A program made the position numbers and the translations under genes. From the sequence record PP337211: a stretch of 64,000 nt of DNA; one strand, written 5' to 3'. Within the stretch, counting starts at the first letter, position 1. The number at the start of each line of letters is the position of its first letter. Shown piece after piece: positions 1 through 38,471 of the stretch. The notes beneath the pieces were generated by a model, which did no database searches, was not told the origin of the DNA, and was given only the letters and a program-made list of their open reading frames with translations. Source of the stretch: Escherichia phage ERS-1.

Positions 1-950
1 GACCTGGATGATGATGTCCGTCTGGCTTCCTGTGCCTCTACGCCGTCCTTGGTCTGGTCTCGCGGAGGAGCCCTGAATCTGCGGTTGGTCCCTTGTGGTT
101 CTTGCCCGTTCTCCCGTCCTCGTCCTTCGGGAAGTGGTGCGGCGACCGCTCGGTGTCGTGACGTAGCCGGCGGCCTTCGCCCGGGCTTCGGCCTTTGCCG
201 CTTCTCGATGCAAACGGCCTTGTGGTCGAAGGTGTCCGGGAGGGCCTGACCCTCCGGCCCCGCGGCCTCGAACCTCCGCGCCCCTTCCGCGACCTGGCGC
301 TGACCCTCCGGGCTGTTCGTGAACGGCCGGAAGCGGGGGCGTGCGGGCGGCCATCGGTCGGGAGCCCGAGCTTGCGCTCCTCCCCTCGCCCGCCTGTCCC
401 GGTAGGACCTGCCGGTAGATTTCCTTGGCGTCCTTGCGCTTGATCCCCGCCTGTCCGCCATCATCCGGTGGTTGTCGGTGTTCGGGTCGTTGCGGACTGT
501 CCCGGGCTTCGATTGTGGACCTGCCCTGCTGGTGCCCGTTTGGTCTTTGCCGGGTGGCGTAGTGGACCGCCTTGCGCGGCTCCTGCTGGCTGTAGTCGTT
601 GGACGCCCTGTGTTGGCCTTCCTCCGGGAGGTAGATGGCCCGCCGCGGCGGCGAACTCTTCCCCAGCCGGTCGCTGCTGGAGGTTCGGGTGTTCGCTGGA
701 CTGTCGCCCGTAGGCAGGCGCCGCGGTCCCGTCGCTTTCGTCTCTTCCCTTCCGGCGGCGGAGCTGGTCGAACGTCCCGTGGAGGCGCCGTTCGCCATGT
801 GGTCCGGGACGGACTGGCGAAGGTCGTGCGCCTTGTTTGCCTTCCGGCGCGTTCGAGGAGGCTCTGCCTCGGGTGGCTGATTGAGCCCTGGCTCCTTGTC
901 GATGTTGGGCTTGCCCTGGGAGGTTGTTCGGCTTGATGCCGATGTGTTCG
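1..950 (-). pseudogene. Frame-disrupted paralog of the small-gene cluster at 43,456-44,300; runs off the window edge
   Basis: Track ORFs 195..443(+) and 43874..44089(-) give near-identical off-frame peptides (…VEGV[R/Q]EGLTLRPRGLEPPRPFRD…); 461..1336(-) 'LRRRKGRDESDGT' matches 43493..43939(+) 'LRRRKDDESDGT'. Hand alignment shows substitutions plus indels. Confidence 0.35.
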
Positions 951-959
951 AGGGCGGGG

Positions 960-1790
960 GCGATCACCTCTGGCTTCCCGGTACGCTGCGGTGATCCGGT
1001 GGCCGGTGATCGACCGGACTTGGGCGTGGGCCTCCGTCTCCTTCTCCGCGCCGGGCTGGTCGGTTGTCCTGGCGGTCGCGTCGATTGCACGCCCCGGCGG
1101 CGAAGGCCCGTGAGGATCGGGGCAGGCCGGACTCCCTGGTGCAGGTTGCCCCGGGTCCTGCCGGACCTCCCGCTCCTGACGGCGGAGGATGTTGGGTGCG
1201 CGTGTCCTCCTCCGCGCACTTCCCGAGGCCTTGGCCGGAGGTCCCGGTTGCCCTTCTTCGGGCAATCCTGTACCACCGCGGCGGCGCGTGCTTCGTCCTT
1301 GCCGTGGAAGCCCCACCGCTCCGCGATAGCTTGCATGCTGTAGCCGTCGTGGAGTTTGGCAGTTGCGGGTCTGCGATCTGGATGTCACGGAAGTAGCGGA
1401 CCCGCTCCAACTCGAGTGCCGTCCCCGGCGAGGAAGTCCGTTGGTGCCAGGTTGGCCTCCCAGGTCGCCGGTGAGCACCTTTGCCGGGCGCGGAGGTAGG
1501 CCGGTACGCCCTCCGGCCGGTAGGTTGCCCCCGCCTTCGCGTCCGATGGGGAGTACCCGCCCGGGCCGTCCTCGATTGCGAAGCTGATGCCGGTGATGTA
1601 GCTGTTCGGCGACGGCCCGCCCCGGCCCCGAGCTCTCGAGGTCCGGTCCCCGCGTTCCTGCCGATGGCGACCCGCTCGGCCCTCCCACCAGGGAGGGTGC
1701 TGAGGTCCGGGGCCTCCCTGTCGCTGGAGACGGTCGTGAACAGGGTGGTTGGAGGTATGAGGCTTGGCTCCCACCTCCGCAATCATCTTG
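960..1790 (-). CDS. Hypothetical protein, frame-disrupted (segments …TTLFTTVSSDREAPDL…, …SYITGISFAIEDGPGGYSPSDAKAGATYRPEGVPAYLRA…, …LELERVRYFRDIQIADPQL…)
   Basis: High-GC3, protein-like segments on the minus strand in three successive frames, each displaced by -1. Confidence 0.3.
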
Positions 1791-4700: not shown

Positions 4701-5332
4701 GGCTTGGCTTCGGCTCGATCAGTTTCCGCGTTCGTCTGCTCCGGGCGGGGCTTCGCGGCGAGGTCGTGCCCTGCTGGCGGTCGAGCCCGCGGATCGCCCC
4801 GGCAGGGCGTTGGCCGGTTCCGTGACGTCCTGGGCGTCGTGGTAGCGGGTGTGGCGGAGGTCGGTCACCGTTGCCCGGACGGCCCCCGCCGACCAGCGGT
4901 GCTGCTGGAATTTGGCCCTGCGCTTTCGAGGGTCGGAACCCGCGGAACCTTGGGGCTGCACTTGGCGGGCTCCGCGTCGCGCGCCCGTTCCTCGCGGTCC
5001 TCCCGGTACGGCCCGGCAATCTCCGCGATGTAGCGGTGCTTGGTCCGCTGTACCCTCCTTGGAGGGGTCGGACTCCGCGCGGATCGTGAGGCTCCGGGCG
5101 CCGCCTTGTTGCCCGCGGCGGCGTAGTCCTCCGGCGCTTCGCCGCTTCGCGGGCTCGAGTCCTCCCCTTTGCCGGGTTCCCGGCTCCGCCTTGTCCTGGA
5201 GAGCGGAGGGTGTCGGCTGTTGATGTAGCGGGCGATGGTGAGGGCGGGTCTTGTAAGGTGCGGGTGGTCCGCGTAGGGCTTGCGGATGTTCTCCTGGTCC
5301 TGGTCGTCCCGGGTTGGCTTCGCGGCAAGATG

Positions 5333-6003
5333 TTAGGGTACTGCCGCCCTCGCGAACCGGGTCCGCGGTCCGGGGCCGGGCTTCCCGGCCTTGCGGTCGG
5401 TAGACGTCGTGCCGGGCCCTTGAAGGCGGCGATGTCGTCGACGCGTGGGTGGTCGGTTCGGGGTCCTGGTCGGGCTCTCGATGACGGCCTTGATGTCCTT
5501 CGGGGCCGTCTCCCTGTGGATGTCGCGGACCGTCTCGCCGTCCGCCGTGGCCTCTCGCCGGACCCGGGCGATGGTGCGGTGCTTGTCGGCCTCTGGTTCT
5601 CCTCGACGGGCTTCCCGCCGTCGCGCTCCTGGATGTGCTTTGGGCTTCCAGCGGCGTGTCCTGAAGGCCGGGTTGTTCCGCCGTTCGCCTTCGACCCCTG
5701 CGCGTATGTAGATGGGCACTGACACCTCGCGCCCTCCAGCCCTACCGCCTTCACGTCCGGGCCCCGCCAACCAGCTCCGCGACGGCCTTGGCCGCGGCTT
5801 GGGTCTTGATCCGGTCCGGACCGGCGGTGGTCGCTCCGGCGGCGGCGGGGGTAGTCCCCGATGATGGCGATGCCGCCCGGCGCGTCGCCGGGATCGGCTT
5901 GTGGTCCGGGACGATGACGTCGATGACGTGGCCTGCGGATCGCGGTCCTGGCTGCGGGTGTGGTCTTGCCGGAGCCGTTACTGCCCTGCGTGATGTACTT
6001 CAT
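5333..6003 (-). CDS. P-loop NTPase with N-terminal Walker A (MKYITQGSNGSGKTT), kinase-like layout; 3' extent uncertain, frame-disrupted
   Basis: ATG at 6003 preceded by GGAGA 8 nt upstream on the minus strand; GxxGxGKTT motif; frame shifts -1 about 30 nt after the motif (…GHVIDVIVPDHKPI…). Confidence 0.35.
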
Positions 6004-6314
6004 CTTGGGTTCTCCACCGGTTGAAAACGGCGGAGCCGGAGCCCCGCCTGGTTGCTGTTGGTTGCGTGATCGGGATGATCTTGCGCTCGCCGCCGTCCTC
6101 CTCCGGCGGGTCTGGTTCCACGATCTTCTTGAAGTCGGGCGAGCGGCCTTCGCCGCTCCGGCTGGTTCCGAACCGGCGGGCTTGCCCTTCGTCCGCTGTC
6201 CGCGCGGTGGAGACCTGCCGGTGGGGCGCGTCCCTTGACCTCCTGGAAGGGCTGGCCCGTCGGTCCGGTGAAGGTTCGGCACGCGCTGGCCGTGGCCGGT
6301 CTGCGGTGATCATT

Positions 6315-7448
6315 TCACGCCTTCCAAAGCCAGTGCCGGCTCCGCCGGCTCCGGGCTTCCCGCGGCGGGTCCAGGCGTCGCGTAGGTCGGTTGCCGTGCT
6401 CGTCGCCAGTTCCGGTACCTGGCCGGTGGGCTTCGACCCGGCACGGCTCCGCGATGGTCTTTTCGGGCTCCGGCCTGGTTCTCCGCGGGCTGTCGGCCAA
6501 GGCTTTGGTACGCTCCGGTCCGAACCGCTTTGGAGGCGTTCGATCATTGCCGGGGCCCGCTGTAGCCCGCCTCCCGAATTTTCGGCGATTGTGGTCGTTG
6601 CCGACCGCGGCCTGGTGCTCCAGCGTGTGGCGGATGTCGTCGTGGGTGACGATCCCCGGGATCTGCGGATTGACCTGAATGGAGGTGTAGATGCCCTGAC
6701 GGCGCTCGGCCATTTCGTCAGATGGTCCTGAAGGCTGATGGCCCCGGCAGGCCGTGCCGTTGTGGTCGTTGCCGGTGTTCTGTGACTTCTGGGCGTAGCT
6801 GTAGGGGTTCCGCTTCGGGTGCCCATGGCCCGTGACGGTAGCCGAGACGGCTGGAAAGAAGATGGTGCCGGGCTCCCGAAGGCTTCCGCCCCCGCCGGGC
6901 GTTATGGGCGCCGTCCCGGTTGGGAAGGGGTCCGTGAAGCTGGAGAAGTAGCCCGCGGCGGAGGTCCGGGACTTCGAGAGGGTTTGCGGACCTGCTCGCC
7001 GGAGTTCGCCGGGACGCCGATGAGGCCGGTGCCGCGGTAGCCCCGGAACCCGCTGTCGACGTAGCAGGCGCGTGCCGCCTGTAGCCCTGGAGGTTCGTTG
7101 ATCGCCTCGCTGAAGGGGCGGGCGCGGGAGCCTCGCTCGTCGTTGCGCTTGTCCTGGTACCTGCCCTGAAGGGGCTTGGCGTTCGGGATGCGGATGTGCG
7201 GGAGGTAGGTGACGTCGTTTGAAGCGGCAGGCCCTCCACCTCCTTCTTGTCGTCGTCCTTCGCGTCGCGGACCTTCCCCTCTGCCCTTGCCGGAACTTCG
7301 CGCGGCTGGTCCTGTGGGTTTCCTTCTCCCCCATCGGGTCCTGGAACTCCCGTTGGTTCGGTCCGGCGGGCGAAGACTTGTAAGCCTCCTGCAGCGGCTT
7401 CGCCGGTTCTTCTGTCCTTGCCGCGTGGTCGGTGCCATTCTCCTTCAA
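6315..7448 (-). CDS. Hypothetical protein, frame-disrupted ([24 protein letters not shown]… / …[24 protein letters not shown]… / …[27 protein letters not shown]…)
   Basis: TTG start at 7448 as in the ORF track; four consecutive high-GC3 segments each shifted by -1; CTTTACTTCTTCCGG motif 22 nt upstream. Confidence 0.4.
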
Positions 7449-7469
7449 CTGTGAAAGTCAGCGCCTTAC

Positions 7470-7484
7470 CCGGAAGAAGTAAAG
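7470..7484 (-). promoter_or_regulatory. Recurrent intergenic motif CTTTACTTCTTCCGG (coding-strand sense)
   Basis: Plus strand reads ccggaagaagtaaag; lies just upstream of the gene starting at 7448. Confidence 0.4.
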
Positions 7485-9811
7485 CGGCGTTAATTCGGCC
7501 CGGCTCGCCCGTCGCTTCCGGGCGGCTCCCCTGGCCTTCGTCTCCTCCGAACGCCGGCGACCGGCGAACTGCCCGGAACCGTGCGGCGACCCTTCCGCGT
7601 CGGGTCGTCTGGTTGTCCTTTTGGGACCCGAGGGTGAACGCTTGGGGTTGACGGTGGCGGTCGGTCGCTGTGAACCTGGCGTCACCGCTGTCGGGGATCG
7701 GCAATTGTTCGAAGGGCTCGAGGATAGCCGATTCCTGCCGCTTGTAGTCGATGTTGGCGTGTACCGTGCTGAAGTACCTGGAGCAGGTCGGGTCCTGTGC
7801 TCCCGTCTCCGGGTCCTCCTTACAGCGGGCGTTTAGGTGAGCCGGTCCGTCACGGTTACCGATGTTCGGGCGATGGGGCGTGGATGGACGGAAGCCTGTC
7901 GAGCGGGTCGCTGCGTTTCGGCTTTTGGGACGGTAACGGGTTGGGGAACGGGGCGGAGGCGTCCCGGGCCGCGTCCGCGTACCCGTAGCCCTCGTCCGGA
8001 TGGGTCGATCCGGTTGCCCGGTCCGGCCCGCGGCCTTCTCGATGTACTCCCGGCTGGCGTCCTGGCTCCGCAGATCCGCTTGTGGAGGATGACGTCGTAG
8101 TTGCGGAGGCTCGCCTCCTCCAAGCCCTCGAGTGCCCGGCGGCGACCGTCCCCCGAGCCGACACCGATGACCGGGTCCCGGCAGTCCGGGAGGTGCGGGG
8201 CGGTGCGGACGGCCTCCGCGGCGTTCTCCGTGATCGACTCCGGGAGCTTGGGGCGTTGGCTGTAGCTGTCGTGGTAGTTCTCCTGGTGCTCTGGCCGGAC
8301 GGGCGATCGCGGAGCGGCCCGCCGGGATGTCCAGGTCCGCCCCGAGCTGGCGAGCGTGCTGCTGTTGGACGCGCGGGCGTCCGCGGCCCCGTCGCGCTTG
8401 AAGCGGGGCCCGTAGTTCGCTTGCACCCGTTCCCCAGCTGCTGGCGTAGGCGACCGCCCTGCCCGCCTTCGAGCGGCACGTGTCCGGCTGCCGATGGTGG
8501 TTCTTCTGCTGGTCTCGATATGGGCGAGGCCCCGTGAATCTCGCTGAAGGACGGACCCGGAGCGCCCTGCTCTCCCGCTTCAGGATCGGCACCCCGTCAG
8601 CTGGTGTTCGACCGGGGCGTCGTTGACGATTGTTGCTGCTCTTGGGCGTGGTCGAGGAAGGCCCGTGCGGCGGAGGCGGCCTGCCTCGGTCGAGCCCGCC
8701 GTCGATTTCCCGGATGTCGTTCCGGGTGGGAGCTGGCCCTTCGCGGGATTTTCCGGTTTGCCGCCGCACCGTCTCCACCTTCTGGATGTTCGGCGGGCGG
8801 TTGCCGGGTGGGGCGAGGTCCGCGAACTGCCGGTTTGTAAGTCCGCGACCCTGGGCGATCGCCTCGCGCTTGGGCTTCGCGTTCTCCGGGTACTCGTGAG
8901 CCTCGCGCCGCTCCGCCGTCGCGGCCTTCTCCGGTCCTTGAAGCGAAGACGGCGGCGTTGTCCGAGTCCGCCGGCATCTCGACCGGTTCCGGCTTGTCGC
9001 GATCTTGAAGCTGATCGGGACTGAAGCCGTTGTGCTCCTGGGCGCGGGCGGAGACGGTGCGGAAGGGGCGCTCCTCCTCCGTCGCCCGGGCTCCCCGGTG
9101 GGTGCCCCGCCTCCCGGGCGGTCGCCGAGCGGGCCTGGAGGGAGGTCCCGCAGTCGGCGGTGCGACCCTGGCCTGTAGCGGCGGCGCTCGCGTCCCCGGA
9201 GGCCTGTGACCCCCGGCGGGCGTCTCCTCCTCGTGGTGGGCCGCGACGTCCCTTTGCGGAACCTCGCCCTCCTTCTCCAGGAAGGAGGCGACCCCGGCGT
9301 GGAGTAGCTCCAGGTTGAGGCTAGCCTGTGGGCGGGTGGAGAAGTCCCCCGCCTGCCCGCGCCGAACCAGGGCCGTGCACACGGGGTCGGATCGCGGTGG
9401 TGATCCGGTGTCGGCCGGGAACGTCTCGATGTCCGGTTGGGGCAAGTTTCTGCCGTGTCTTTTCTCTGGTATGCGTGACCGATTTTCCCGCTCGTGTCCT
9501 TGCACATGTCCGGTTGGGTAATTGGCGACTGAAGGAAGGCTCCGTGCGGACTTCTTCGTTGACGTGAATACGGGATGGACCGTCTGCCCTTGCCGTCGCC
9601 GTCCTCCGTGATCCGGGTGAATCCCGCAGGTAGCTTGAGGGCTCCCTTCTGTATCCCCGCTCCGCCGGGCACCTCCGGCGGAGGGTAGCCGCGTGCGCTC
9701 CGAGGCTCCCAGTGGCCTTGCCCTGCTTGGGCTGGCGGGCTACCGGCGGGCGTCCTGCCTTCGGCGGACTTCTGCGGCTCGTGGGCCGGGATCGCGTGGC
9801 CTTCCGGGACC

Positions 9812-10390
9812 TCACGTGGAACCGCTTGTGCCGTCCGCGGCGAAGGCGGAGCGGCACCCGCAGCCCTTCCGCTTCATGTCCTGCTGAAGCCGGAGGGCGT
9901 GGCTCGGTCCGGGCTTGTTGCTGCCCGGGCTTCGACCTGTTCCTGCCTTGGTCGTCCGTTTCGGGGCGGGATCCTGTATGTCGGGAGACGCCCGCTCCAG
10001 CCCTCGCGGCGGGGATCGGGGCGTGGCCCGGGCGGCCGTGTCGGCGCCGCGCGGGGCGCGGGCCTTCTTCTCCTCCGCGGACTTCGGAGCCTTCTGGGCC
10101 TTCGGAGGCGACGGGGCGGGGGTTGCGGTTTGTTTGCGGTTTCGACCTTCTGGGTTCGGCCTGCTCTGCCGCTCAAACTTCCGGGTGCGCTTCGGCATAA
10201 CGCGCCAGGCATCTTCTGGTGTGGGGCAATGGCGGTGGTCTTGTTGGCGAAGCGGCGCACGTTCGGACGGACTTGCCGTTGCGGAAGGTGCCGATGACTT
10301 CGTCGGACCTGCTCGACCAGGGCTGGGCCGGAGGGCTCGCTGGGAGGCTTCGGTGTAGGCGACGTTGTCGAAGTTGATGGTGTTGGCGGT
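9812..10390 (-). CDS. Hypothetical basic protein, frame-disrupted (…[14 protein letters not shown]… / …[50 protein letters not shown]…)
   Basis: AAAGGAG-like SD near 10,400 on the minus strand; frame cycles F3 to F2 to F1 to F3 (all -1); stop at 9812. Confidence 0.35.
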
Positions 10391-10454
10391 AGGCTCCTTT
10401 TCTGGGGTTGAGGTGCGATCTTGTTCGACCGTGAGAGAATCTTAACCCTGGCCC

Positions 10455-10468
10455 CCGAAGAAGTAAAG
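10455..10468 (-). promoter_or_regulatory. Recurrent intergenic motif CTTTACTTCTTCGG
   Basis: Plus strand reads ccgaagaagtaaag, about 60 nt upstream of the SD of the 9812-10390 gene. Confidence 0.4.
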
Positions 10469-12900
10469 TGGTTTGACTAACTTTTTCAGGTTCTCGGTCC
10501 GAAGGCCGGGTGCCCGTTGGACGGCGGAGGGCGAACCGTTGAGGCCTTCTTCCCTGAAGGCCCGGGCGGCGTCCCTCGTGCCCTGGTTCTCCTGTACCGG
10601 CTGGTTGCGCCCCGAGGTGTGCGGTACCCTGGCGACCTCGAAGCCCTGCGACGTCCTGGCAAACCCTTGCCGGTGGAAGTCCTGGCGCTGGGCCGGATAG
10701 CCGAAAGCCTCTGCGACGTCTCCGCCGGGTCAGGAGGATGACGTGCCGACCGCCGGTGGTGGGCCTCCACCGCGGCCGCGGGCACCCCGCGTCCCGGGCG
10801 GGCCGCTTGTCGTCCCGCTTCCGGCGCCCCGGGAAGGTGTGGAGGGTGTCGGCGCGGTCGAAGGTCTTGAGGTAGTCCTTGGCGATAGGCCCGCCTGCTT
10901 CGCCCTACGCCCTCCCGCGGAGGACCGCGGAGGGGAGCCAGGGGCCGGTCGGGTCCGTGTTAGGTCCGGCGCTGGCCGATGAGTAGGGGCTTGTTCGGTT
11001 CTTCGGGCTCCTCGCTTTCTTCTGGTGACGTTTGGTTTGAGGGCTCGCTCTGTACCGGGATGGCCCTTTGGGGTGTCCTGGTTGCGCGAAGGAGGAACCC
11101 GGCCGGTGAATCTGGGTACCGCCTTCTGTCTGTCCTTTGCACCCTCTCCGTCCGGTGGCCGGGTCGACGCGGTCCGGCTCGCCGGCTCCTCCGCCGGGGC
11201 GTCCGCTTCGGGCTCGCCGCCGTCTCTTCCTTTGCCAGGATGCCCACCGCTTCCCGCCGGGCGGAAGGTCGTGTGCCCTTCGCCCCGCCTTCCCTGGTGC
11301 TGGCTGTGTCCCAGTCTTCCCGCTGATGTCGGAGCTGCCGCCGCTCCGCTCGCCGCGGAACGACCCGCTGGGCGGCGACGGGCGGGGCGGCGACGTGTTC
11401 CTGGACGGTGACGCGGGAGGGGCCTTGCCGCGGACCCGAACGCGGTCCGTAGTCCCCCGCCTTCGCCTCGCGGGCCGCCTGAACTCGACGGCGGTGCGGT
11501 CGAAGCTGTAGGCGAGTTCGGCCGGACCGGAGCTGACGTTGTCGGGCGTGCCGACGGTCCCGGTCGGGGCGATGGAAGTGAGGTGGGAGTTGCGGATGCC
11601 GTATTTGGCGATGGCGTCCTGCGTCCTCGCGGAGGGTCTTGATGAACTGGCCCTGAAGGTACTTGTCCTTGTCGAACTTCGGGAAGGAGCCCTTGACCTT
11701 GGCGATGTGGGCGCTGCCTGGTAGGCTGCGCGTGCGCGTGTCGGTACCCTGCCTCGAAGGCGAGGAAGGCGGGCGAACCGTACGCGGCCTGGCTTCGCGC
11801 GTTGCCCTGCCGGCGATCCCGAGGCCCTTGCGGCGCTTGTCCTTGGCTTCCTGCTTCTGCTGCGGCGGGTACATCGCGCCATCAACCCGTTGCCATCGCG
11901 CGGACCACCTGCGGATGTCCTCGCGGACTGGTCCCGTCGAAGGCGTAGCGGCCCGCCCCGTCCTCTAAGATGTACTTGACCTGTTGAAGGAGCCCAGGAG
12001 GCAGGCACCGTAGGGCGGCAGGGGTTGCTCGCCGGTGGGGTTCGTGGCGGCGATGGTCTGGCGTCCTGGCGCTCGTTTGCGGTTGATCGCGTCGATTAAT
12101 GGCGTACCCGGCTCCGCCTGTCCCGTTCGTGCGATCGCGTCCTGGCGCCTGGGCGTCGCTTCGCGGGCAGGTCTGGCCCTCGAAGGTGAGGGGAACGGCT
12201 CGCCGGAGGCGATGCGGCGCTGCCTTGTCGGTGATGGCGACGGAGACGTTGAAGCTGGTTGCTTTGGGTCTGCCGAAGGAGACGGGCCGCCGCTTCTGGG
12301 CTCCCTCCGGGAGTTGGTCCAGGTCCGGCGGCTGAACGTCCTTCCCGGGTTGCTTGGCGTGAATGAACTCCTCGATGTCGGGATGGTCCGCGGATCGTTG
12401 TCCGGGCTCCGCGGCGATGGCCGGCAGGAGGCGACGGCTGGCAATCGCGTCGAAGATGTGGGTGAAGCTGATGGGGCCGGAGGAGTGGGACTGGAGCTTG
12501 CGGATCGGTCGCCGCGAGGACGGAGGGTGCTGAAGTCAGGCCGATCCCCGCCGCCCTTCCCCGGTATCGCGTGGCCGCGGCTTCCGCGGCCCGGATCGCT
12601 TGACGGAGCCTTCGCCGTCCCAAGCTGTCGTTGATCGTCCCGGAGACGTAGGTTGTATGGCGTGACCTGGCGAGTGGAGCCCGTTTGCGGACTGGATGCG
12701 GCCCGCCGGGAGGAAGCTGCGCCTGGAGGGCGTCCCGGAAGTCCGCGAAGTGCTGGTCATTGTTCCTTCAGGGCCGCGGCGATCCGGTTCGATGGCCTCG
12801 CGGAAGGACTCGCCGCTGCCGCGGTACTTCTGGGCGTGTAGTTCTTGTGAGTAGGGTACTTGAGGACCTGTTGTGAGTCTCCTGAAGGGTTGAGGGCTTT

Positions 12901-14065
12901 CTATCGTGTTGTTGCTCCTGTTCTTGGGTAGGCTGGTGAACGAGGTCGATGTGTTCCGCGGCCCGGGTAATGGCGGTGTATGCCCCTTTCCTTCCGGTCC
13001 TTCCCGTACCCCTGTCCGGGCCTGGCGGACGTTGTTCCTTCGGGAGCCCTGCGACTTGTGGACGGTGAGCGGCTGCCCGTCGAACTCCTCCGCGTCCTCC
13101 GCTCCCAAGATTCGCTTGTTGCCGTGGAAGTAGTGGGGGTGGGCGCTGACTTCGACCTTCGCGCCGTCCTCGCCTTCGATGTCCTTTACGGTCGCCGCTG
13201 TCGAAGATCGTGTCGCGGCGGACCTTCCGGCTGGCCGTTGAGGCCTGCCCGTGGTTGTTGCGGAGGTGCCGCTCGTCGCCTTCCTGGGTGGGCGTCTGTC
13301 CGCCCGAGGAGTTCCCGGGTACGTCCGTTGCTCGTGATTCTCGTGGCGTCCTGCCGGGTCAGGAGCCCTTGGCGGTGGAGGTACCATGTCCCGCAGTTCT
13401 TCGCGCTGTGGTGGCGGTGGGAATTTGTGGCTGGTCCGTAGTCGCCGGGGCGGAGGCGCGGCCCTCGCGGACCTCCTTGGAGGTCCGGAACGATCGGGTT
13501 GTCCTGGGCCTGGCGGTGAATCTCCGTGAGGATGTCGGGCTTGTTCTTGAAGAAAGGGCGCTGCCCGGCGGGAGCTGTCCGGGATCGCCTGGTGAGGATC
13601 GGTGCCGAAGCCAGGCCCTCCTCCCGCCGTCGGTTGCGGAGATTTGCGAGCGTGGCCTCGAACCAGGGGCGACTCCGCGTTGAGCTGGAAGGTCGGGCGG
13701 GCGAGGTCGATCTGCTCCGCCTTGATCGCCGCAATCGACCTTCGCGAGGGTTTCCGGGACGGGCTTGTGAAGTGAAGAGCCGCGCCCGCTCCGCTTGGAG
13801 TTCCTTCTGGTGCTGCTGCGACTTGTCCTTGGGCGTGTAGATGAGCTTGTGAATGGGTTCCGTTGGTCGCCCCGGACTTCGTGAGGACGTGAGCGGCCTT
13901 GCCGGTGTAGGCGGCGAAGTGCCGGACCGTCGACGGTCGCGGCGAGGTGTTTGGCCGGGTGGTCTTGCCGGTTCCGGCGTACCCGGCGAGCTGGAAGGCG
14001 GGCTTGTCCCGGGTCTTGAGCGATGCTGCCCGGTTGGCGCGGTCCGCCGTTGCGGACTCCGTCAT
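12901..14065 (-). CDS. SF1B DNA helicase, RecD/Dda/TraA-like, frame-disrupted
   Basis: ATG at 14065 with GGAGAA SD; helicase motifs in order: I 'AGYAGTGKTT', Ia 'AAYTGKAA', '(T)IHKLI', VI 'LTVHKSQGS', then 'YTAITRA' in the -1 frame; stop TAG at 12,901-12,903. Motif spacing matches RecD-like helicases. Confidence 0.6.
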
Positions 14066-14082
14066 GACCGTTCTCCGTTTCT

Positions 14083-14114
14083 GATGAAAAGAAGGGGGGC
14101 CCTTGAAGGCCCCC
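14083..14114 (-). terminator. Rho-independent terminator-like hairpin (7-bp G/C stem, 6-nt loop, then CUUCUUUUC tail on the minus strand)
   Basis: Plus strand 14,095-14,114 gggggcc-cttgaa-ggccccc; the minus-strand 3' side is U-rich. Sits between the upstream gene and the helicase start. Confidence 0.5.
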
Positions 14115-14129
14115 TGAAGGTACGGCCCG

Positions 14130-15440
14130 AGGGCGGGCCGTCCGGGCTGGTCCTCCCGGTGGAATCGGGTCCGGCTTGCCGCCGCCTGCGCCTGGGCTTC
14201 TTCGTCCGCGAGCCCGGAGCCTGCGAACGGGCGCGCGGGCCTCGCCCTGCTCGATCGTCGATTCGATGTTCGGCGGATGGAACCTGCGGTTGTGGGCAGG
14301 AGGTGAGCCTGCTGGGCGTTCTCGCCGTCGAAGGCGATGGCGTCCCGTTGAAGAACTGGCCCTTGTCGTTCTCGCTTGCGGTCTTGAGGCGGTAGCGGTG
14401 GGCGAACCTGCGGAGCCGGAATGCGGCGACCGTCCGGCGGAATCTGGATGGCTTGGCCTTGGTCCTTCCTGCCCTTGCACTTCTTGATCTTCGTGGAGCT
14501 GAAGGCCGGTGACCGCTTCCAGGCGTTGCCGTGGTCGTTGCGCGATGCCGGCTGGCGCAAGGTTTCGATCCTGGCTCGTCGCCGTCCGGGGTGCTGCAGC
14601 TGCCGTGCCCCGAGGACGCGGCCTTGGCGGGTTCACCAGGTCGCCGTCGACTTCGTGGATGCCCGCAAACCGCCGCCCGCATCGCGTGGGCTTCCACGCC
14701 ACGTACACGTGCCGGGTGGTCGCCGGGACGAGTGGACGCCCTTGGCCGTCCCGGCTTCGCCGGTCCCGGTGTTGGATCATGCCCTGGTGGTGCTGTCGTT
14801 CTCCTGGAGCTGCGGGCTGAGGGCCTGAGAATCTGGAGGAACGGGATGCTGTAGTCATTGCTGGTCTGGCTCTCGAAAACCCGCGCGCCCGCGTAGTGGT
14901 GCGTGCCTGGCCTCTGCGGTTGCGGTGTTCTGTTCCTTCAGCCCGAGGTCGGTGGTCTTGCTATCGGTCTTCTGGCGGTTACAGGCTCCTTCGGTTCGAT
15001 GTGAGCGGGTCGATTGGGCCCCCGGTCGAATAGCCCTGCCGTTCCTGCCGGTGTACCCGCGTCCCGCGGGGCGGTTCGGCTCGGGAGGAAGGCCCGGGGC
15101 CGTCCTCCTTCCTGGTTTGTTCTTCGATCTTGGACGTGCTGACGATGGACCCAGGTGTCGGGGGACTTCCTCGCCTTGCGTGGCCCTCGCGGACGAAAGC
15201 GGTAGGGTTGAAGGATGGACGCTGGCGTTGTCGCCGCCTCGAACTCGTCCGCGAGACGCTGGCGGTTCGCTGCCTTCTGCCCCTCGCCCTTGCCGAAGGC
15301 GACGGTGACCCGCGCTCGATCATCGCGGCGCGGCCGTTCTGCTCGAGCCGGCGAAGGCGAGCGGGGCCTTGGCCTTCGGGATGCTGGCGCGGATCGTCTC
15401 GTCGGGTTTGATCTTCTGGCGGTGGTGGTCTTGAGCTGCC
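14130..15440 (-). CDS. Hypothetical protein(s) upstream of the helicase, frame-disrupted; boundaries uncertain
   Basis: Protein-like high-GC3 segments (…NIESTIEQGEARAP…); no intact stop found before the terminator. Confidence 0.25.
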
Positions 15441-15460
15441 AAGTTGCGCCGATCTGGTCC

Positions 15461-15645
15461 TTAGTTTGTACCCTGGCGCTCCGCGATGTCGCGGAGTTCT
15501 TCGCGGGCCTTGTCGAGTTGGGCTTCGAGGTCTGCGACCTTCGACTGGGCGCCTGTTGTTCGGCCTGCTGAGCGAGTTGGTCCTGGCTTGTCGCCGGCGG
15601 TCTGAGGTTGGACATAGTCCAGGTATGCGTTTTCACTTGAGGCAT
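15461..15645 (-). CDS. Small coiled-coil protein (MPQVKTHTWTMSNL… / …KVADLEAQLDKAREELRDIAERQGTN*), one frame shift
   Basis: GGAGAA SD 6 nt upstream of ATG at 15,645; stop TAA at 15,461-15,463; two motif copies upstream. Confidence 0.45.
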
Positions 15646-15684
15646 GTGGTTCTCCGTTTCTTCGGTAGAGGGGTATCCCAATTG

Positions 15685-15721
15685 CTGAAGAAGTATAGCC
15701 GGTTGTTCGGAAGAAGTAAAG
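15685..15721 (-). promoter_or_regulatory. Tandem pair of the recurrent motif (CTTTACTTCTTCCG … CTATACTTCTTCAG)
   Basis: Plus strand ctgaagaagtatag (15,685-15,698) and cggaagaagtaaag (15,708-15,721), 40-80 nt upstream of the 15,645 start. Confidence 0.45.
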
Positions 15722-17105
15722 AGGCCCAGGCGTCCACCGCGATGTAGCGTTGGTCCTTGCCGCTCCCTTAGCAGGGACGTCCCGTCGTTGGCGTCCGCGG
15801 CGATGGCGACGGCGAACCGATTGGGTACCGGATCGCCCGAGGCGAGGTGGTCCCCCGGCCCGAAGTCGGCCCGCTTTCTCCTCGGGCCGGTCATTCGGCT
15901 CCGGGCGGAAGGGGCCGCGGTCGGGCGGCGGGCACCGGCCTTCCCCAACTCCTCCGCCGGCGAGGTTGAATTTGGGCTCGAACCGCTGCTCGTCGCGGTC
16001 CCTGCGGTGTTGGTCTGTACAAATACACGGCTCGGGGTAGTCGTCACAACCTGTCTTTGAGGCGGTCGCCGGTGATCTGGCTCGCCCGTCCAATTCGTTT
16101 CGGCTTTCCCCTTCCCTTCCCCGGAGTCCTGCGCCCAGGTCGATGCACCTGCCCGTTGTTGGTCTGTCCGATCCGGTGGGCGCGGTCCTCCGACTGGAGG
16201 CGGTCGTTTGGCTTGAAGCTGTTGGAATAATAAAATGACCTGCTCTGGCTGTGGTCGGGTGCCGGTGCTGCGTCGCCCCCGCCGCGGGGTTGCCCTTTAG
16301 CCTCGCGGGCCCGCTCCTCCGGCGGACGGCCTCGCGCCCTGGACCCTGCCCGTTGTGGGCAGCGGGCGCTCGCCCTGGAACCGGGCCTCGGCGTCCGCCC
16401 GCTCGTCGTTCGTTTCCTGCCCTGCGGCGGACCGCGCCGACGCCGCGCTCGCGGAGGGCGTCCATTTGGTGATGTCCGCTTCTGGAACCGGGCCCGGTCA
16501 TCGCCTTGCGCCGGACTCCGACGGTTCCGGGGTGTCGGTGACGGCTCGGCCCCGGGATTGTGTACCCGGGTTCCGCTTCGTCGTCGGTCGGGAGGTAGCT
16601 GGCGTGATCTGCTGGAGGCGGAGGAGCCGGGTGATGGCGAGGGCGGCGATGACCGGGGCGGTGCCCTCCGCGCCCTGTCGGGGCGTCTCCTGGTCGGTGG
16701 GTAGACGAAGCCGTTGAAATTTTTTACCGCCGTTTGCCCGGTGCCGGGCGTCCGGCGACGGCTCCGCGGCGACCGCTTCCGCGTCCCGAAACCCGGCCCG
16801 TTCCGCCCTGTCGATGACCTGTTGGTGCTGGTGAGAACCTGCTTGCCCTGCTCCGGTCGTCGGGAGAACCGCTTGCTGGACCTGCTTCGGCGGGAGGTCG
16901 AGCACCCTTCCTTCGTGACCTGGGAGGAGACGGGCTGGAGGAGGCTGTTCGGGTGTCCAGGCGGCGATAGCCCTCTGCGTCGGGTCTGTTGCCGTCGTTC
17001 TTCTTGGTCTTGGGGTTGAAGGCGGTCGGGTTCTGCTTCTTCCAGATGCCGAAGTGCTGCTTGAACTCCGTGAGGTCCCTGCTGGTCTCGTTCCGTAGTT
17101 GTTGG

Positions 17106-17700
17106 TTTAAAACTCCATCTGGCTGTAGGCGTCGAAGGGTCCCGAGGGTTCCGCAGTCCCGGTCGGTGATCGCCCTGAATGGCGCGTACTTCGCGGAGCG
17201 GAGGATGGACTTGGGGTGCGCTCCGCGGTCGGGGTCTTGATGCAGTGCGCCTGTCCCGGACGTAGGAGGCGGCGCTTGTCGAAGAAGTTGGTTGGCGCCC
17301 GCTTCCCGGAGGTGGTGGTGAAGGCTTCAGGCGATGGTGGAGCCTGGCGAAGCCCTTGTGCTCGATGACGGCCTTGACCGCCTGGCTTGTGCCGCTTGGT
17401 GTCGGCCTTCGGGCTCTGGTAGTGGAAGGCCCGGGACGTGCTTGATCGCCTGCTTCGGGTACGTGGTCCGGGATTCCCTTCTGTCCCTGTTGCGGTGCAC
17501 GCCTGTTCGGGGCGACACCAGCACGCCGTCCGATGAGCCCGCGGAGCCTGGCCAGCAGTGCGGTGTCGATGGCTGCTTGGACTTGCCGGTGCCCTGTTCC
17601 CGGAAGATCGCGCGGGCTTCTTCTTCGCGGAGCGTGCCGCCCTCGCGCTGGTGGTTGAAGGGTTCGGCTTGAAGGGGTATTCGGGGCGGCTCCGCTTCGG
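17106..17700 (-). CDS. Hypothetical protein, frame-disrupted (…FNHQREGGTLREEEARAIFREQGTGKSKQ / AAIDTALLARLRGLIG… / …GPFDAYSQMEF*)
   Basis: High-GC3 segments in successive -1 frames; stop TAA at 17,106-17,108; start codon not identified. Confidence 0.35.
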
Positions 17701-18060
17701 TGATGCCCGGAAGTATAGCCCGCTGGGCGGCGAAGGCGAGCGGAGAATCGGGTGCGCTTGGGACGGGGCCCTGGCGCTCACTTCGTGTGCTGAAGAAGTA
17801 TGAAGTGGAGTAAGCGTGGAAGCCCTGCGGGCTGGGGGTTTATATTCTTCTTCTTCTTCTCTTAACTCACTCAACTACTTACCTTAAACCCCGCACGGCC
17901 TCCGAAACCTAGCAAACGGTCGTGTCGCCTCCCTGGTGGGGTCCCGGCGATTTATCGGGCGAAGTAGAACTGAACTGGAGAAGTGAAGTAACCTAGCGGG
18001 AGGGTCGGAGCTGTTACGGCGCTGGGCTTTCCATGGCGCTTGGGGTCTACTTCTTCGGGC
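17700..18060. promoter_or_regulatory. Intergenic region dense in TACTTCTTC-type motifs (both orientations) with a (CTT)n microsatellite at 17,843-17,863
   Basis: ggctatacttccgg, cttcatacttcttcag, gaagtagaac, gaagtgaagtaacc, ctacttcttcggg; lower GC; no coherent coding frame. Confidence 0.45.
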
Positions 18061-21000
18061 GTGAAGGTAATATTGGCAGCGGTCACCTATTTGTGGAACC
18101 CCTTGAGGCCTGAAGGACGGGGAGACCTGGCTGCAGAAGAAGATGCCCTGGTGGCGTCCCCTTCCGCTTCTGCCTCCCCTGACTCGCGCCCGGCGGAGGT
18201 GTTGGAAGTCCCTCTGCGGCGACGGTCGGACGTGTCCGCCCGAGCTGGACTGTGTTCGCTTCACCGCTCGGCACACGTCGTTGGCTCCGAGTGGACATGG
18301 ATTGCCGTTTCCGCGGCTCGCTTCGCCGCGTCCTCCGGCAGAGTTTCGCCGCCCGGGTCGTGCCGGGACGGCGATGTCTTCGACTTGCTCCGGGCGGGGG
18401 TGTTCGGGGCCTCGAATTAAGATGATCGGCTGGATTTCTACGAGTTGGAGGGCCTTAACTTTAGATGGCTGCCTGTTGTGTCTCCCTGCGAGCCCGTGGA
18501 CGTGTTCGGCTTGCCGGGTGGTGTCGAGTATTGGCCCCCGATCCGAGGCGGCGCTCGCCGCCGGGCGGTTCGCGGTCGTGCCGTAGCCGCGGAGGAACTT
18601 CCCGCGCCGCCGTTGGTGCCGGTAGGCGCCGTCGGCACCTCGGCGGACGGCCCTGCCCTTCTTCGGCGAGATTCGCGCCGTCGCCGCGCTCGAATAGCGC
18701 GCGATCCGTTGGCCCTGACCTGTTCGCGCCGGTCGGGCTCGCCGGCGCCACGTTGCTCCGCGGGCGAAGCCGGTTGGGCGGTCGTGGTCGCGGACTTCGC
18801 GTGGCCTGCAAGGCCGTCGTCACTGGGCGGAGGAAAGACTTTGCAATTGGTCGCAGGCGCTGGTCCCTGCTGGCGCCTTGCCTTCACGCCGGTCGGCTGT
18901 TACCGATAGCCGTGGACCTTCGGGACAGTTTCCAAACTCGTTCCCGAGTCTGCTGATCCGGTTCCAGTCGTGGGATCGGTAGCTGTCCGGCCGTCGCGGA
19001 CCGCCGTGACCTTGATCCGGTTCCGGCCCGCGGCGTTCTCCGTCGCCTCGTCGGTCCGTTGCTAGCGCCGGTTGGCCGGCTCCGACTTCGGAGCGTGCCG
19101 CCGTCGGCCGCGTAGATGTCCGCGGCAGGTTACCCGGCTCCGGCCGATGTTCGCCGCGGCGTGGTCGATGATCGGATGGACCCCGCCGGGTCCGGGTCCG
19201 CGGTGCGCCGGGTAGAGGCTTGTGACCTCCGAGGATAGCCGAAGGATACTGGAGACTGTTCGCCGGAAGTTCCCGGGAGCGTAGGCGCGCGAAACGGCTC
19301 GCGCCTCCGAGCTCCTCCGGGGGCGGAGGTGCCGGACGCCGACCCCGGACTGGCCCTGGCCCTTCGCGGCGATGGTCTCGCCGCTGTCAGACGGAGACGG
19401 TCGTGCGCGGGCGTCCTCCGCGAACCGGGTAACCGCGCCCCGGCTGCGCGTTCCGGCGCGCATGAATCCAGTTGACGGCCCGCTGGCGATCCCGTTCGGC
19501 CCCAGTGTCCCGGCGATTTCGTTGTCGGTTGCGGGTTGCTCGTGGGGGTCGGTGCGGGAGGGCCTGTTGGGCCGGATGGAGGTCTGTATGGGCGTGATCG
19601 CGTTCGTCCGGCGTAGCGTGCGCCGCGGGTCGCCGGTGGCCGCGTATGCGTAGGACCCGCCCGTGGCTTGTCCTGGTCGGGCTCTGGAGGTACTGGCGGG
19701 CTCGCCCCTTCCCTGCCGATCGGTAAGGCGGAGGCGTTGTCCGGCGCCTGGACTCGCCCGAGGGTGCTGTTCGCCTTGGCAGTTCGCCTCCTCCGGAACG
19801 GCGGAGGGCGAACGGGTTGGGCGCTTGACCGGTCCTCCCCTGCCCGAGCCCTGGTTGCCCGTAGGTGGAGGACGGAAGGCCAAGCGGTTCTGAACCGTTC
19901 ACCCAGATTTCGTCCCCACCTCCGCTGCTGGCGGCTCCGCCCAGCTTGCCCGAGGACGCGGAGCCACGTCCACAGGCTGGTGCTGGTCCCAGGAGAAGCG
20001 GTACGCCCCCCAGGGTCAGGTTCCATGCGTTCCGGTTCACCCGGATGCGGATGCGTGCGAAGGGGGTGGACTTCTCGGCGGAGGTCGCGGACGCCGTTTC
20101 GCCGCGTTCGCCGCGGTGTCGATCCCGGAGAGTTCGCCGTCTGGCCGTCACGCCCGTTGGGCCTGGATCGCCGCGAGGTCCTGCACGGTTGCGGAACCCG
20201 TCCTGCGGAGCCTTGCGGACGGTAGGTGACCTCTTATTCCGTTAGCACTCGCGTAGCCCGGGCGCTCGAGGACTCCTGCGGATCGCGTCGGACTGTCGGA
20301 CCTGCGGAGGCTTCGCCGCCAGTAGCCCTGCGCGGTACTGCTTTGCCCTGAACTTACCGGTTGTCGGGTTGCGTGTAGGAGGTCCGTTGCTGTGGTGGCC
20401 TGTTGTACACACGAAGGACTGATGGAGCTCCTGCTCGGTCGACGGTTGAGACGCCGGCCTTCCGCGCGTGAAGGGTGTCCGCGGCGCGAAGGCGGCGCTG
20501 TCGGGCGTTGATCGGGCACCCGTCCTGTCCGGGTTCGCTCTGTGTTCTGCAATGACGTGGCGGGGTTCGCCAGCCGTTGACGTCCGCCTTCTCCGGAGAA
20601 CCGGCCTTGCCCGGAGGCGCTTCGCCTTTGGTGCCTGGCCTTCCGGCAGGCGGCGGTCGGTGCCCTTCCGGAAGAACCTGCGAAAGGACGCCCCGGAAGG
20701 CCGGGACGGCGGTGCCGATTTTTGATTGGAGGTAACTGTTGCGGCCCTGGTTCGATTCCCCCCCACGTCCGTAGCCCTGGACACCCCTCCTCCTCGCCGC
20801 CGAGGCTCCGGGCTGTCGATGTAGATTTGCTGCGAGGCCGTCACGTCTCCGCTCCGGCGGTCCGGTTGCCCGGGCATTTCTGGACGGAATCACTGGCCCG
20901 TGAGGGGTTGCCAGGTGGGCGCCAGACAACTTGTACCCAATCGTTACGACAGATTTGCTGCCCGGCCTTCTGCGACTTGTAGCGCCGTGGTCGCCGGTCG

Positions 21001-24000
21001 CCTCCGCTCCTCCGCCGGCATGCCCTCGTGGACGTGCTGCGGTCCCTGCCCGTGTCGGGCGGCGAAGGTGCGCGCCGCGGAGGCAGCCGGAGGCGCGGGC
21101 GCGTTCGACCTGGACCGCCGGCTTGTCGTCGGCTCGCCGCCGTCCGTTTGACGGGACTGCTGGCCAACCTGTACCGGCGTCGTTCGGCCTTCGGCAACGG
21201 TCCCGAAGGTGGTCCGGATCGGTCGCCCGGGCTCCGCGGTTGGAAATTGGAGTCTTCGGTCAAGCGGGTTTGGGGGTGGCCTGCTTCGGCGAGGGCCGCC
21301 GCCGCGTACGCCCGCGACATGAAGATGATCCGGTACACCTGCCCCCTTTACGGGTCCTCCTCGGTAGATTCGGCGCCGTTGTTGGGTTCTTCTTCGGGCA
21401 GAACGGCTGACCCCCGAAGTTGTCCGTTGTTGAACTTGTTGTGGCACGTACCGGGGTGTGGTCGTCCTGGGATAGGCCCGGACGTCGCGTTGGCGGGTAT
21501 CCTGTCGGTCGGGGAGGTTGAGCGTGATCGCCTGCCCCGCGCGCGATGATGAACCGCCGTTCCGGATCCTGCGCTTCCTGGGTCCCGCAGCCCCCGGCGA
21601 AGTAGCGTTGTGAAGGAGGAGAAGGCCGGTGACCTGAGGTCCCGCCCCGAGACGCCCGTGAGGGTCGCGCCGCCCGGAGTTCGCGGAGGACTTCCCGCCG
21701 GCCCGAAGGACGTGGGGGCAGGTCGGGTCCGGCGGAGGGTCGGCGGCGGTGAGCCGGGCCTGCCGGCCTGTACCCTCGGCCTCGCGCTCGCGGATTCGAC
21801 GACCCCGCCGGGGACGGCGAGCTGGCCGTCGCCCCGTGATACCGCTGGATGGTGAGCTGGACGATGTCGGTGGGCGGCGAACCGCGGAACTGGAGGAAGT
21901 GACCGCCCTTACCCTTTGCCGGTGCCTGGTTGCTCCGGAGTTTCTGGTCTGCTGAAGGCCCCGCGCTTGATCTGGACGGAGTTGTACCTCCCTTCACCCT
22001 TGCTCCTCCGCTGAGGTGTAGTGCCTGGGCATCGCGCGCCCCGGGCGGTGGGTGCTCGACCGGTAGGCTTTGGCTGCTTCGCCGCGTGCGCTGCGTTGGC
22101 GGTTGAATCTCCCTTTGCGGACCGGTACATTCAAGGTACCCGGTTGGAGTTCCCACGAAGTTACCCGATCCGCGTCCTGGTGCTTTGTGCTGAAGCCGAT
22201 TGGCGGATGCGACTGGCGTTGATGTTGATCGGGGCGTCCTGGGCCGATCACCGCCGTGTCCGTCCCTGAGGCCGTCGCCGGTTGATTGTCCTGGGGCTGC
22301 GTTCCGTCTGTCCGTGAGGATGCCGATGTGGGTGCGCTCCGGCGGGGTCGCGGTAGTTGTTGGCGTGCCCCTGACGCTCTGGGCGGCTCGCCGGTCTGGG
22401 CGATCCGCGGTCGCTCTGAAGGTCGGAACCCGGAACGGTGCGCGGCCCGCGCGCCGGTGAAGGAACTTGCGGAGTTCGTGACGTCCTGGAGTCCTGGAAG
22501 TAACGGTAGGGGCGTCGGGTTCGGCGCGTAGGTCGGGTGATAGAAGCTGGCCCCCGCCGCGGTCCCTGTAGTCGGCGGTTGCCCCGGGCTCGAAGGCTGT
22601 CCGTGGCGCCTCGCCGTTCGCGCCTGCGGAGATGTTCAGGTGCCGAGGAACCGCGTGGGGGCCGCGGCGGGTCCGTCGATGTTGTCGCTGAACCTGGTGC
22701 CATTTCGGTGAACCGTTGTAGCCCGAGGTTGCCCGCGAGACGTTGCCAGGATCCGCCGAGGCGGCGGGCCGATCCAGGGGTTGGCGAAGGTTTGGCCTGG
22801 TCGGTTTGGTGCGGAAGTCCCGGCGGAAACGATACCCGTGCCGCGGTCGCGCTCTGCGGTTGGACTCCTCCGGATGCGACGGGCGCGCTGTCCCGGTAGT
22901 CGGAGGCGGTCGTGTCGATGTTGATCCGGTCGTGCCCGCCTGGTGGTTCCCACCTGTTGGGCCTTGGGTCTAGGGGTGACGGCCCTGGTATGGCGAGTTG
23001 GTCGGCCCTGGTCCTCCGCCCGGGCCATTTTCCGGTACGGGATCGGATAGGTGACGTTGAAGGACTGGCGGGGCTTCTTGCGCGTTCCCGCTGCTCCGAC
23101 CGTCGTTGGTCGTGAGGTATGTTTGTTTTCCATTCAGGACCTCCTTGGCGGGGCCTCGAAGATGTACGGCGGCGACCATGCGCGAGCCCAGGTTGCGGAA
23201 GTTGGCGTTGCGTCGCTGTCCGTTCCTGTCGAAGCGGAAGATGGCGTTGATGTCCGGCGGGCCGTCCGTGGTGATGGTCTGCTGATAGGTCTGGTCTCCG
23301 GCTGCCCGTGTCGCGGGCGGGACGGCCTCCTGGTGGACGCCGCCGCCGTTCTGACCTGGACGTTCCCTGAAGGTATCGGTTGTTGAAAAAGCCGTTCCTG
23401 TCCCTCGATTGCGAACTGCTGCTCGCCACAGGTTGCCCGTTTGTTCGAGGGGCGGATGTGGATGCGGTTGTAGCAGTCGTCCGGAAGCTAATGCCCCTGC
23501 CTGTGACGGGAAGTTGTACCGGGCTCGCCGATGGGGGAGGTTGTCGGTCTGCGGACGGTGTAACGTCGCGGCAGACTTCGGTAGTGGCGGAGGCAGGACT
23601 TTGGCTGGCAGGACCAAGGAGTCCTGCTGTTCCGACCTGTTCGTGACGGCCCCCAGGGTGCATCCCCGTCAAGGCGCGTAAGTGGTAATCACCGCCGGTC
23701 CGGTTTGCCCTTTCGTAAGCGACATTCCCGTTGCCTGCTCGTCCGCCTTTCTGGTACCGGGAAGCCTTCCCGACCCTGGTCGGGGCTGAACTCCTCCCCC
23801 GGCCGGCAGGGTTATGTTGTGCACCCGTATCCGGGACGATGCCCACCGGGACTCTAACTCGTCGTTGCGATTCGGCGAGAGGCGTTCGGCAAGGAGAAGC
23901 CCGACCCCGTCTGGGGGTTGGCGACAGTCCGGCACTCCACCGTGAACCCCCGCCTTGGCAAGCCTGGAACGGTAGGTGTTCGCTGCCGACCGCGCCGACC

Positions 24001-35250: not shown

Positions 35251-35254
35251 GCCC

Positions 35255-36320: not shown

Positions 36321-36325
36321 GATGA

Positions 36326-36354
36326 ATTGTAGCGGTTTCTGCCGTGCCGGATTG
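36326..36354 (-). promoter_or_regulatory. Conserved ~29-nt intergenic element (minus sense CAATCCGGCACGGCAGAAACCGCTACAAT), copy 1
   Basis: Near-identical to the element at 38,441-38,471; ends in a TACAAT -10-like hexamer on the minus strand. Confidence 0.35.
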
Positions 36355-38440: not shown

Positions 38441-38471
38441 AATGTTGCGGTTTCTGCCCTTCTGGATTGTG
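38441..38471 (-). promoter_or_regulatory. Conserved intergenic element, copy 2 (minus sense CACAATCCAGAAGGGCAGAAACCGCAACATT)
   Basis: Shares the GGCAGAAACCGC core and flanks with 36,326-36,354. Confidence 0.35.

Follow-up and report, generated by a model that had tools for sequence, protein, structure and literature searches.

We analysed a window of 64,000 nucleotides (nt), the whole stretch under study, from sequence record PP337211 (Escherichia phage ERS-1), and within it a Dda/RecD-like superfamily 1B (SF1B) helicase gene whose motifs follow one another in the expected order but are spread over several reading frames. Very probably, this is an intact Yuavirus helicase gene that has been scrambled in unsplit raw nanopore reads, with the thymines of TG dinucleotides probably hypermodified. 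The window would then consist of unsplit raw Oxford Nanopore (ONT) reads of native, barcoded DNA prepared without the polymerase chain reaction, in which ~30% of thymidines would have been converted post-replicatively to 5-(2-aminoethyl)-deoxyuridine (5-NedU) by the 5-hydroxymethyl-deoxyuridine (5-hmdU) DNA kinase pathway. A basecaller trained on canonical DNA would fail at the modified TG thymidines of the read (minus) strand. The resulting substitutions and deletions would add to a baseline error of ~7%, and the 61 TG sites of the gene would lie behind most of its frameshifts.

The gene is the ortholog of Orf37 of the Yuavirus PAE1, a 'Dda-like helicase' of 397 amino acids (aa) that is encoded by an intact 397-codon gene in the RefSeq genome (YP_009215728.1). 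A blastn search of phage genomes with the helicase region returned 98 phage records, the majority from the PAE1/M6/YuA group of Pseudomonas phages; in 52 of the 98 the match had a query coverage of at least 80%, with identities of 84-88%. The features in the matched records are labelled 'Dda-like helicase', 'DNA helicase', RecD-like or 'exodeoxyribonuclease V-like', and ribonucleotide reductase is the next gene. By tblastn, PAE1 Orf37 had significant matches in all three minus frames of the window (E values of 4e-48, 2e-33 and 3e-12), and a frame-corrected (stitched) translation of the window was identical to Orf37 at 293 of 397 aa. In Pfam, this stitched translation scored 37.9 bits against AAA_30 (E 2e-9), above the gathering cutoff of 27, and 24.5 bits against UvrD_C_2, just under the cutoff of 27.4. 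The intact PAE1 ortholog matched AAA_30 (72.5 bits, 5e-20), AAA_19 and UvrD_C_2 (52.5 bits, 4e-14), and among the solved structures in PDB it matched RecD2 (3E1S, 1e-16), RecD (1W36_D, 4e-6) and T4 Dda (3UPU, 4e-6). An initial annotation, made from the letters of the sequence, had called a RecD/Dda-like SF1B helicase at this place and had named a frameshift-tolerant search of helicase families as the check on that call. The blastn, tblastn, Pfam and PDB matches bear the call out, the AAA_30 score being a significant helicase match of the kind proposed.

The DNA of the window is collinear over the whole gene with PAE1 Orf37 and its Yuavirus orthologs (M6, YuA, AN14, PaSz-4, Chuck, BL8 and others), and the gene has the same neighbours. 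RecD2 of Deinococcus radiodurans (3E1S, 3GP8), the RecD subunit of E. coli RecBCD and T4 Dda are SF1B 5'-3' helicases that share AAA_30 and UvrD_C_2 with the PAE1 ortholog, and the RecD/Dda type is also seen in motifs I, Ia, III, V and VI. The PAE1-type protein is shorter than RecD2 and RecD (397 aa versus 574-609), and the relationship is a distant one with local matches. These comparisons support the view that the locus is an ordinary Dda/RecD-like SF1B helicase of a Yuavirus-type Pseudomonas phage, already known as a core gene that all phages of this type possess. Its predicted function is ATP-driven 5'-to-3' translocation on single-stranded DNA, with unwinding, and nothing in the sequence suggests that the helicase in the window differs from its orthologs.

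A three-frame translation of 12500-14200 made the motifs listed in Table 1 readable on the minus strand, collinear and in alternating frames, and as sequence matches they are far beyond chance. Codon-by-codon tracing to PAE1 Orf37 confirmed the earlier observation that the motifs stand in order over several frames. Motifs I and Ia, the TIH(K/R)L segment and the C-terminal YxAITRA had all been recognised correctly, but the element that had been labelled motif VI (VHKSQGS) is actually motif V. Likewise, the interval 12901-14065 proposed for the gene was essentially right but ran slightly too far at 12901, as the gene ends at ~12929. All the helicase motifs except motif II are recognisable in the window. 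Motif II is VVDEYSM in PAE1 (LLVVDEYSMIDEQMGEDLLSFGC), and its counterpart in the window is unreadable because this stretch, with its GTG, ATG and TTG codons, is dense in TG in PAE1.

The window gene differs from PAE1 Orf37 in its broken frame, which we attribute to read errors and not to the phage. A DNA alignment of window positions 14060..12939 with the PAE1 gene contains 1013 matches and 92 mismatches, together with 76 nt deleted in 45 runs and 17 nt inserted in 12 runs. When traced codon by codon to the intact PAE1 gene, the helicase falls into 45 frame segments, or 44 frame switches in 1.1 kilobases (kb). Some of these segments are 1-3 codons long, and 56 of the 397 codons are incomplete. 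As written, the gene has no uninterrupted coding frame and no readable stop codon, the predicted stop codon being itself miscalled. Collinear motifs in changing frames could be produced by programmed recoding, in which the breaks between frames would be bridged by ribosomal frameshifting or by editing, but the number of switches, the 1-3-codon segments and the incomplete codons all argue against it. To our knowledge, no recoding mechanism works at such a density of switches, which also counts against this explanation. The orthologs are single open reading frames (ORFs) in dozens of genomes, a comparison that effectively refutes recoding and leaves it a negligible probability.

A single-frame reading of the region was also rejected. 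It consists of a 674-aa ORF (12536..14560), whose part from the ATG at 14065 (509 aa) has no Pfam match. The window is 68% G+C and has long spurious ORFs in every frame; the 674-aa ORF is a by-product of this composition and not a gene.

The frame scatter is not peculiar to the helicase. Indels are spread evenly over the 64 kb: there are ~42 per kb, 38 of them frameshifting, and the bin that holds the helicase, with 31-36 per kb, is among the lowest in the window. The terminase, portal, capsid and DNA polymerase genes are as frameshifted as the helicase, and every gene is hit equally. A decayed helicase pseudogene, in a defective prophage or a degenerate phage remnant, would account for the lack of a single frame open across the motifs and for the unreadable motif II and stop codon, but not for ~38 frameshifts per kb in every gene, terminase, portal, capsid and DNA polymerase included. 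The scatter, for which the initial annotation gave no cause, is a sequencing artefact common to all genes of the window and is not biology. Because frames are broken by read errors throughout, single-frame ORFs in the window are meaningless; and since the missing single frame is attributed to such errors, it lowers trust in the sequence and not in the gene. From the orthologs and the error statistics, the real phage helicase is almost certainly one intact ORF of ~397 codons.

The arrangement of the window as a whole indicates the source of these errors. Sixty-five related records were found for the window, and by similarity and gene order it belongs with Yuavirus (Mesyanzhinovviridae). Almost all of the window can be aligned to PAE1, as two oppositely oriented blocks. 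The first pairs window 1-42662 with PAE1 46919 down to 29, and the second pairs window 43340-63986 with PAE1 from 45949 upwards, across the record ends, to 3614. We call the corresponding nanopore reads read 2 and read 1, respectively (Table 1). The genes of read 1 run forward on the plus strand of the window, and this read continues unbroken from PAE1 62181 to position 1 (window ~61090-61100), while read 2 begins ~33 nt ahead of the PAE1 record start (window 42660-42707). Since both long reads cross the ends of the PAE1 record, the sequenced molecules must have been concatemeric, end-joined or permuted in another way than that record.

Between the blocks lies a junction of ~630 nt that contains ONT adapter and native-barcode cassettes. 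The head cassettes have the form AAGGTTAA-24-nt barcode-CAGCACCT, and three of them are complete. The cassette for barcode 02 matches at 40 of 40 positions, including 24 of 24 in the barcode; the other cassettes have 36-62 identities over 40-68 nt. Two AT-rich inserts of ~130-160 nt lie between the cassettes, and these must derive from other samples of the multiplexed run. PacBio SMRTbell, ONT rapid-kit and Tn5 sequences, which were also looked for, gave background scores only. With adapter and barcode cassettes inside it, the window is therefore a series of at least four raw Oxford Nanopore reads that were never split, and not an assembled genome; the second of the long reads contains the helicase. 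A foldback (template-complement) read was considered as the source of the inversion and rejected, as the blocks end at different places, PAE1 45949 and ~62149, the latter just before the record start. The complete adapter and barcode cassettes and the two foreign inserts between the blocks also rule it out.

Two stretches of the window are present twice in inverted orientation, 112-897 versus 43382-44191 (75% identical) and 40037-42336 versus 61454-63770 (69%). These are the same regions, DNA polymerase in one case and terminase plus portal in the other, read from opposite strands in two reads. A genomic inversion and terminal repeats were both rejected as explanations, since the same genome regions are involved and each strand was read once. 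In a three-way alignment with PAE1 of the cleaner of the two stretches, the DNA polymerase region, the two copies agreed with each other against PAE1 at 19 of 1035 columns, whereas single copies departed from PAE1 at 136 and 199 columns. The copies are thus jointly near PAE1 but mutually discordant, and the phage is therefore ~98% identical to PAE1 in this stretch; each pass contributes 13-19% of independent noise. The poorly kept base is the same in both blocks, A on the plus strand and T on the minus strand of the window, despite the opposite directions of the genes, and the errors therefore belong to one physical strand, the read (minus) strand. Errors that are deletion-biased, strand-specific and independent between passes are those of raw nanopore reads. 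A decayed gene would be expected neither to have duplicates that differ at 25-31% and yet, in the cleaner stretch, together are so close to PAE1, nor errors that track one physical strand instead of gene orientation, nor sequencing adapters within the window, and we consider the pseudogene explanation very improbable.

The errors of both blocks are concentrated at one dinucleotide. Thymines of 5'-TG-3' on the read strand agree with PAE1 at only 22% of sites, with 54% substituted and 24% deleted, compared with 89% kept in TC, 79% in TA and 69% in TT. Where a TG site is isolated, the T itself is wrong at a rate of 0.79; the error rate is 0.30 and 0.24 at positions -1 and -2 and 0.34 at +1, and it falls to ~0.1 by ±4; the miscalls are often T to C, with collateral errors 1-2 nt to either side. 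An error within -2..+1 is found at 89% of isolated TG sites and at ~20% of control dinucleotides. T in TC, TT or TA far from a TG has a 5-6% error, and at isolated TC sites 95% of T is kept. No clear difference was found in wider context between the ~11% of TG sites that are clean and those that are affected.

The same defect accounts for much of the damage to the helicase. TG occurs 61 times in the gene, mostly within CTG, GTG, ATG and TGG codons, and of the 57 TG thymines that are aligned, 7 are kept. Frameshifting indels fall within -3..+2 of a TG in 36 of 49 cases, although this zone makes up 28% of the gene. Because TG sites fail, the residues lost are mostly Leu (CTG), Val (GTG), Met (ATG) and Trp (TGG).

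Nanopore noise alone could be proposed as the cause, with the TG errors a quirk of the basecaller or the chemistry that involves no base modification. The synthetic DNA in the same record speaks against this. In the adapters and barcodes TG was kept at 14 of 15 sites, compared with 763 of 3453 in phage DNA (Fisher p=9e-9), and at 19 of 20 when a less certain cassette is included (Fisher p=7e-12). As synthetic TG is read correctly in the same record, the defect is a property of the phage DNA and not of the basecaller. Noise alone would also leave unexplained the correspondence with the known hypermodification of ~30% of T in this phage group, the TG preference reported for related pathways (PMC6449724, PMC13458397) and the presence of the same TG-specific defects in the record of EKU1, a phage of the same group, all described below. 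We consider it improbable, although it is better placed than either a decayed gene or recoding.

Several points weigh against our interpretation, and some of them favour noise alone. The error is ~7% even away from TG, and 13 of the 49 frameshifting indels in the helicase lie outside the TG zone; they fit this baseline, but individually some may be real. The helicase is covered by one read pass only. There is also a second context error, in which A after a pyrimidine (CA, TA), far from any TG, is kept at 65-87% and called G at 11-26%, compared with ~91% kept after a purine on the read strand. This A-to-G error is not expected from a modification of T, and basecaller biases therefore also exist; it could stem from such a bias, from a further modification, or from the way in which the modified complementary strand acts on the motor. 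The ONT adapter and barcode matches presuppose that the reference strings used for them are correct. Finally, the TG lesion is seen here as an error footprint in basecalled reads, from which a chemical modification is deduced.

Hypermodified thymidine is nevertheless the likely cause of the TG miscalls, judging from their footprint. The full set of genes for the 5-hmdU DNA kinase pathway is present in PAE1 and all of them align in the window, 3.5-10 kb downstream of the helicase (Table 1), where they are frameshifted like everything else. In Pfam, PAE1 Orf49 matches HMUDK_hel (4e-55), Orf43 matches ADDT (1e-46), and Orf44 and Orf46 match PALP and Radical_SAM. Phage M6, a close relative, replaces ~30% of its T with 5-NedU, and the same base was predicted for PAE1, YuA and others, with a sequence motif described in 2018 as 'not yet known' (Lee et al. 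2018, PMC5889632). Later work on M6 found TG and TC enriched at the sites that resist restriction (2019, PMC6449724), and a 2026 study of Acinetobacter phage SH-Ab 15599 showed that alpha-dapT, a related modification that depends on a 5-hmdU kinase, prefers TG (PMC13458397). In belonging to the same phage group and having the same gene cluster the window resembles M6, and TG makes up 33% of all T in its PAE1-aligned part, close to the ~30% of 5-NedU. The TG context also agrees with what restriction data had implied. The window differs from M6 in that its footprint is confined to TG, with TC seemingly unaffected, whereas the M6 restriction data point to TG or TC. We found no nanopore-based report of TG miscalls in Yuavirus in the literature. 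We consider it somewhat more likely than not that the footprint is a base-resolution map, in which essentially every TG thymine would be modified on both strands, at a level of at least ~87% and with no wider context, and TC, TA and TT would be essentially unmodified.

The best database match to the helicase region, at 87.6%, is PV844354 (Pseudomonas phage EKU1). In this region, compared with PAE1, EKU1 keeps TG at 36%, CA at 99% and all other dinucleotides at 77-100%, and its helicase and ribonucleotide reductase coding sequences are fragmented. Unlike the window, the EKU1 record is a deposited consensus, and it contains fewer errors. At 87 columns of the helicase region the two have the same letter where PAE1 differs, and the top rank of EKU1 may come partly from shared systematic miscalls. 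The EKU1 'complete genome' looks like an uncorrected nanopore assembly with TG errors.

Table 1. Positions of the helicase and its motifs, the read structure and other genes in the window.
Feature	Position	Strand	Remarks
Dda/RecD-like SF1B helicase gene	12929..14065	-	PAE1 Orf37 ortholog; from DNA alignment, frame tracing, Pfam and PDB matches
Motif I / Walker A, AGYAGTGKTT; segment SLKTRDKPAFQLAGYAGTGKTT	14023..13956	-	Contains GxxGxGK(T/S)
Motif Ia, FAAYTGKAAHVL; segment HFAAYTGKAAHVLTKSGATN	13921..13860	-	Contains A-x-T-G-K-A-A
T-I/L-H-K/R-L element, (T)IHKLIYTPKDK; segment IHKLIYTPKDKSQQ...	13856..13770	-	Element present; frame differs from that of motif Ia
Place of motif II / Walker B	13662..13604	-	Garbled; 7 frame segments in 59 nt
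Motif III, GDPGQLP	13590..13560	-	Agrees with GDxxQLPPV
Motif IV-like, PFFKNKPDI-LTEIHRQAQDNPI	13559..13492	-	From frame tracing; motif III and IV-like together 13492..13590
Motif V, PLTVHKSQGS	13074..13022	-	Contains T-V/I-H-K-S-Q-G-S
Motif VI, YTAITRAAEHIDLV	12980..12939	-	Contains Y-T-A-I-T-R-A; motif V and VI segments 12939..13074
Nanopore read 2 (contains the helicase)	1..42707	-	Phage coding strand; ~33 nt before PAE1 record start to PAE1 46919
Nanopore read 1	43340..64000	-	Phage non-coding strand; PAE1 3614 down through record ends to 45949
Read junction, ~630 nt	42708..43340	-	ONT adapter and native-barcode cassettes
ONT ligation-adapter top strand	42999-43025	-	23/28 match
BC02 head cassette	43226-43265; mate 43044-43072	-	Barcode 24/24, head cassette 40/40; the mate is a tail cassette
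BC03 cassette	42957-42998; mate 42791-42831	-	Head and tail cassettes
BC08-like cassette	42708-42747	-	Head cassette, probably barcode 08
BC07-like cassette	43309-43339	-	Tail cassette, probably barcode 07
Thymidine-hypermodification cluster	2881..9456	-	From Pfam on PAE1 proteins and window alignment
Cluster members by PAE1 ortholog			Orf43 amino acid:DNA transferase; Orf44 pyridoxal-phosphate (PLP) enzyme; Orf46 radical SAM
Further cluster members			Orf49 5-hmdU DNA kinase; Orf51 Nmad5; Orf53 thymidylate-synthase-like hydroxymethylase
Ribonucleotide reductase	11138..12907	-	PAE1 Orf38 ortholog; directly downstream of the helicase; equally frameshifted
Hypothetical protein	14165..14976	-	PAE1 Orf36 ortholog; directly upstream of the helicase
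Second helicase of the module	16044..17682	-	PAE1 Orf33 'DNA helicase' ortholog; 'HepA superfamily' in the EKU1 record

The tail genes (18.4-21 kb) precede the helicase gene in the coding direction (minus strand), and the gene lies between an SNF2-like helicase and ribonucleotide reductase, with Orf36, Orf37 and Orf38 in the same order as in PAE1. This agrees with the initial annotation, which had placed the gene in a replication module after the structural genes, and the helicase belongs to a phage replication and nucleotide-metabolism module.

Two differences from PAE1 in gene content were observed elsewhere in the window. Neither read copy has the HNH endonuclease gene Orf3 (PAE1 2265-2882; window ~40531 and ~63143-63308), a mobile endonuclease whose presence in PAE1 and absence here is a genuine difference between the two phages. 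A stretch of 2.2 kb (window 56171-58413) has no PAE1 counterpart and matches Churro, AN14 and vB_Pa-PAC9 at ~82%. Its counterparts are annotated as DNA-binding, GGDEF-like and antirestriction proteins, and it is an ordinary variable early-gene module of the Yuaviruses.

The helicase finding is in itself of little weight, as the gene is well annotated and belongs to the core set of a phage genus that has been well sampled. For the record as it stands, ORF-level interpretation is impossible anywhere in the window, and other initial findings there should be set aside where they depend on frames, stops, pseudogenes or inverted repeats. Among the deposited 'complete genomes' of the Yuavirus group, at least that of EKU1 appears to contain the same TG errors, left uncorrected, and broken gene calls. 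When Yuavirus DNA is read natively by nanopore, the reads fail specifically at TG and so offer a cheap genome-wide map of likely hypermodification sites. If the base-resolution reading of the footprint is true, the specificity of the M6-type 5-hmdU DNA kinase pathway would be pinned to the TG dinucleotide, and strict TG targeting would account quantitatively for the reported replacement of ~30% of T.

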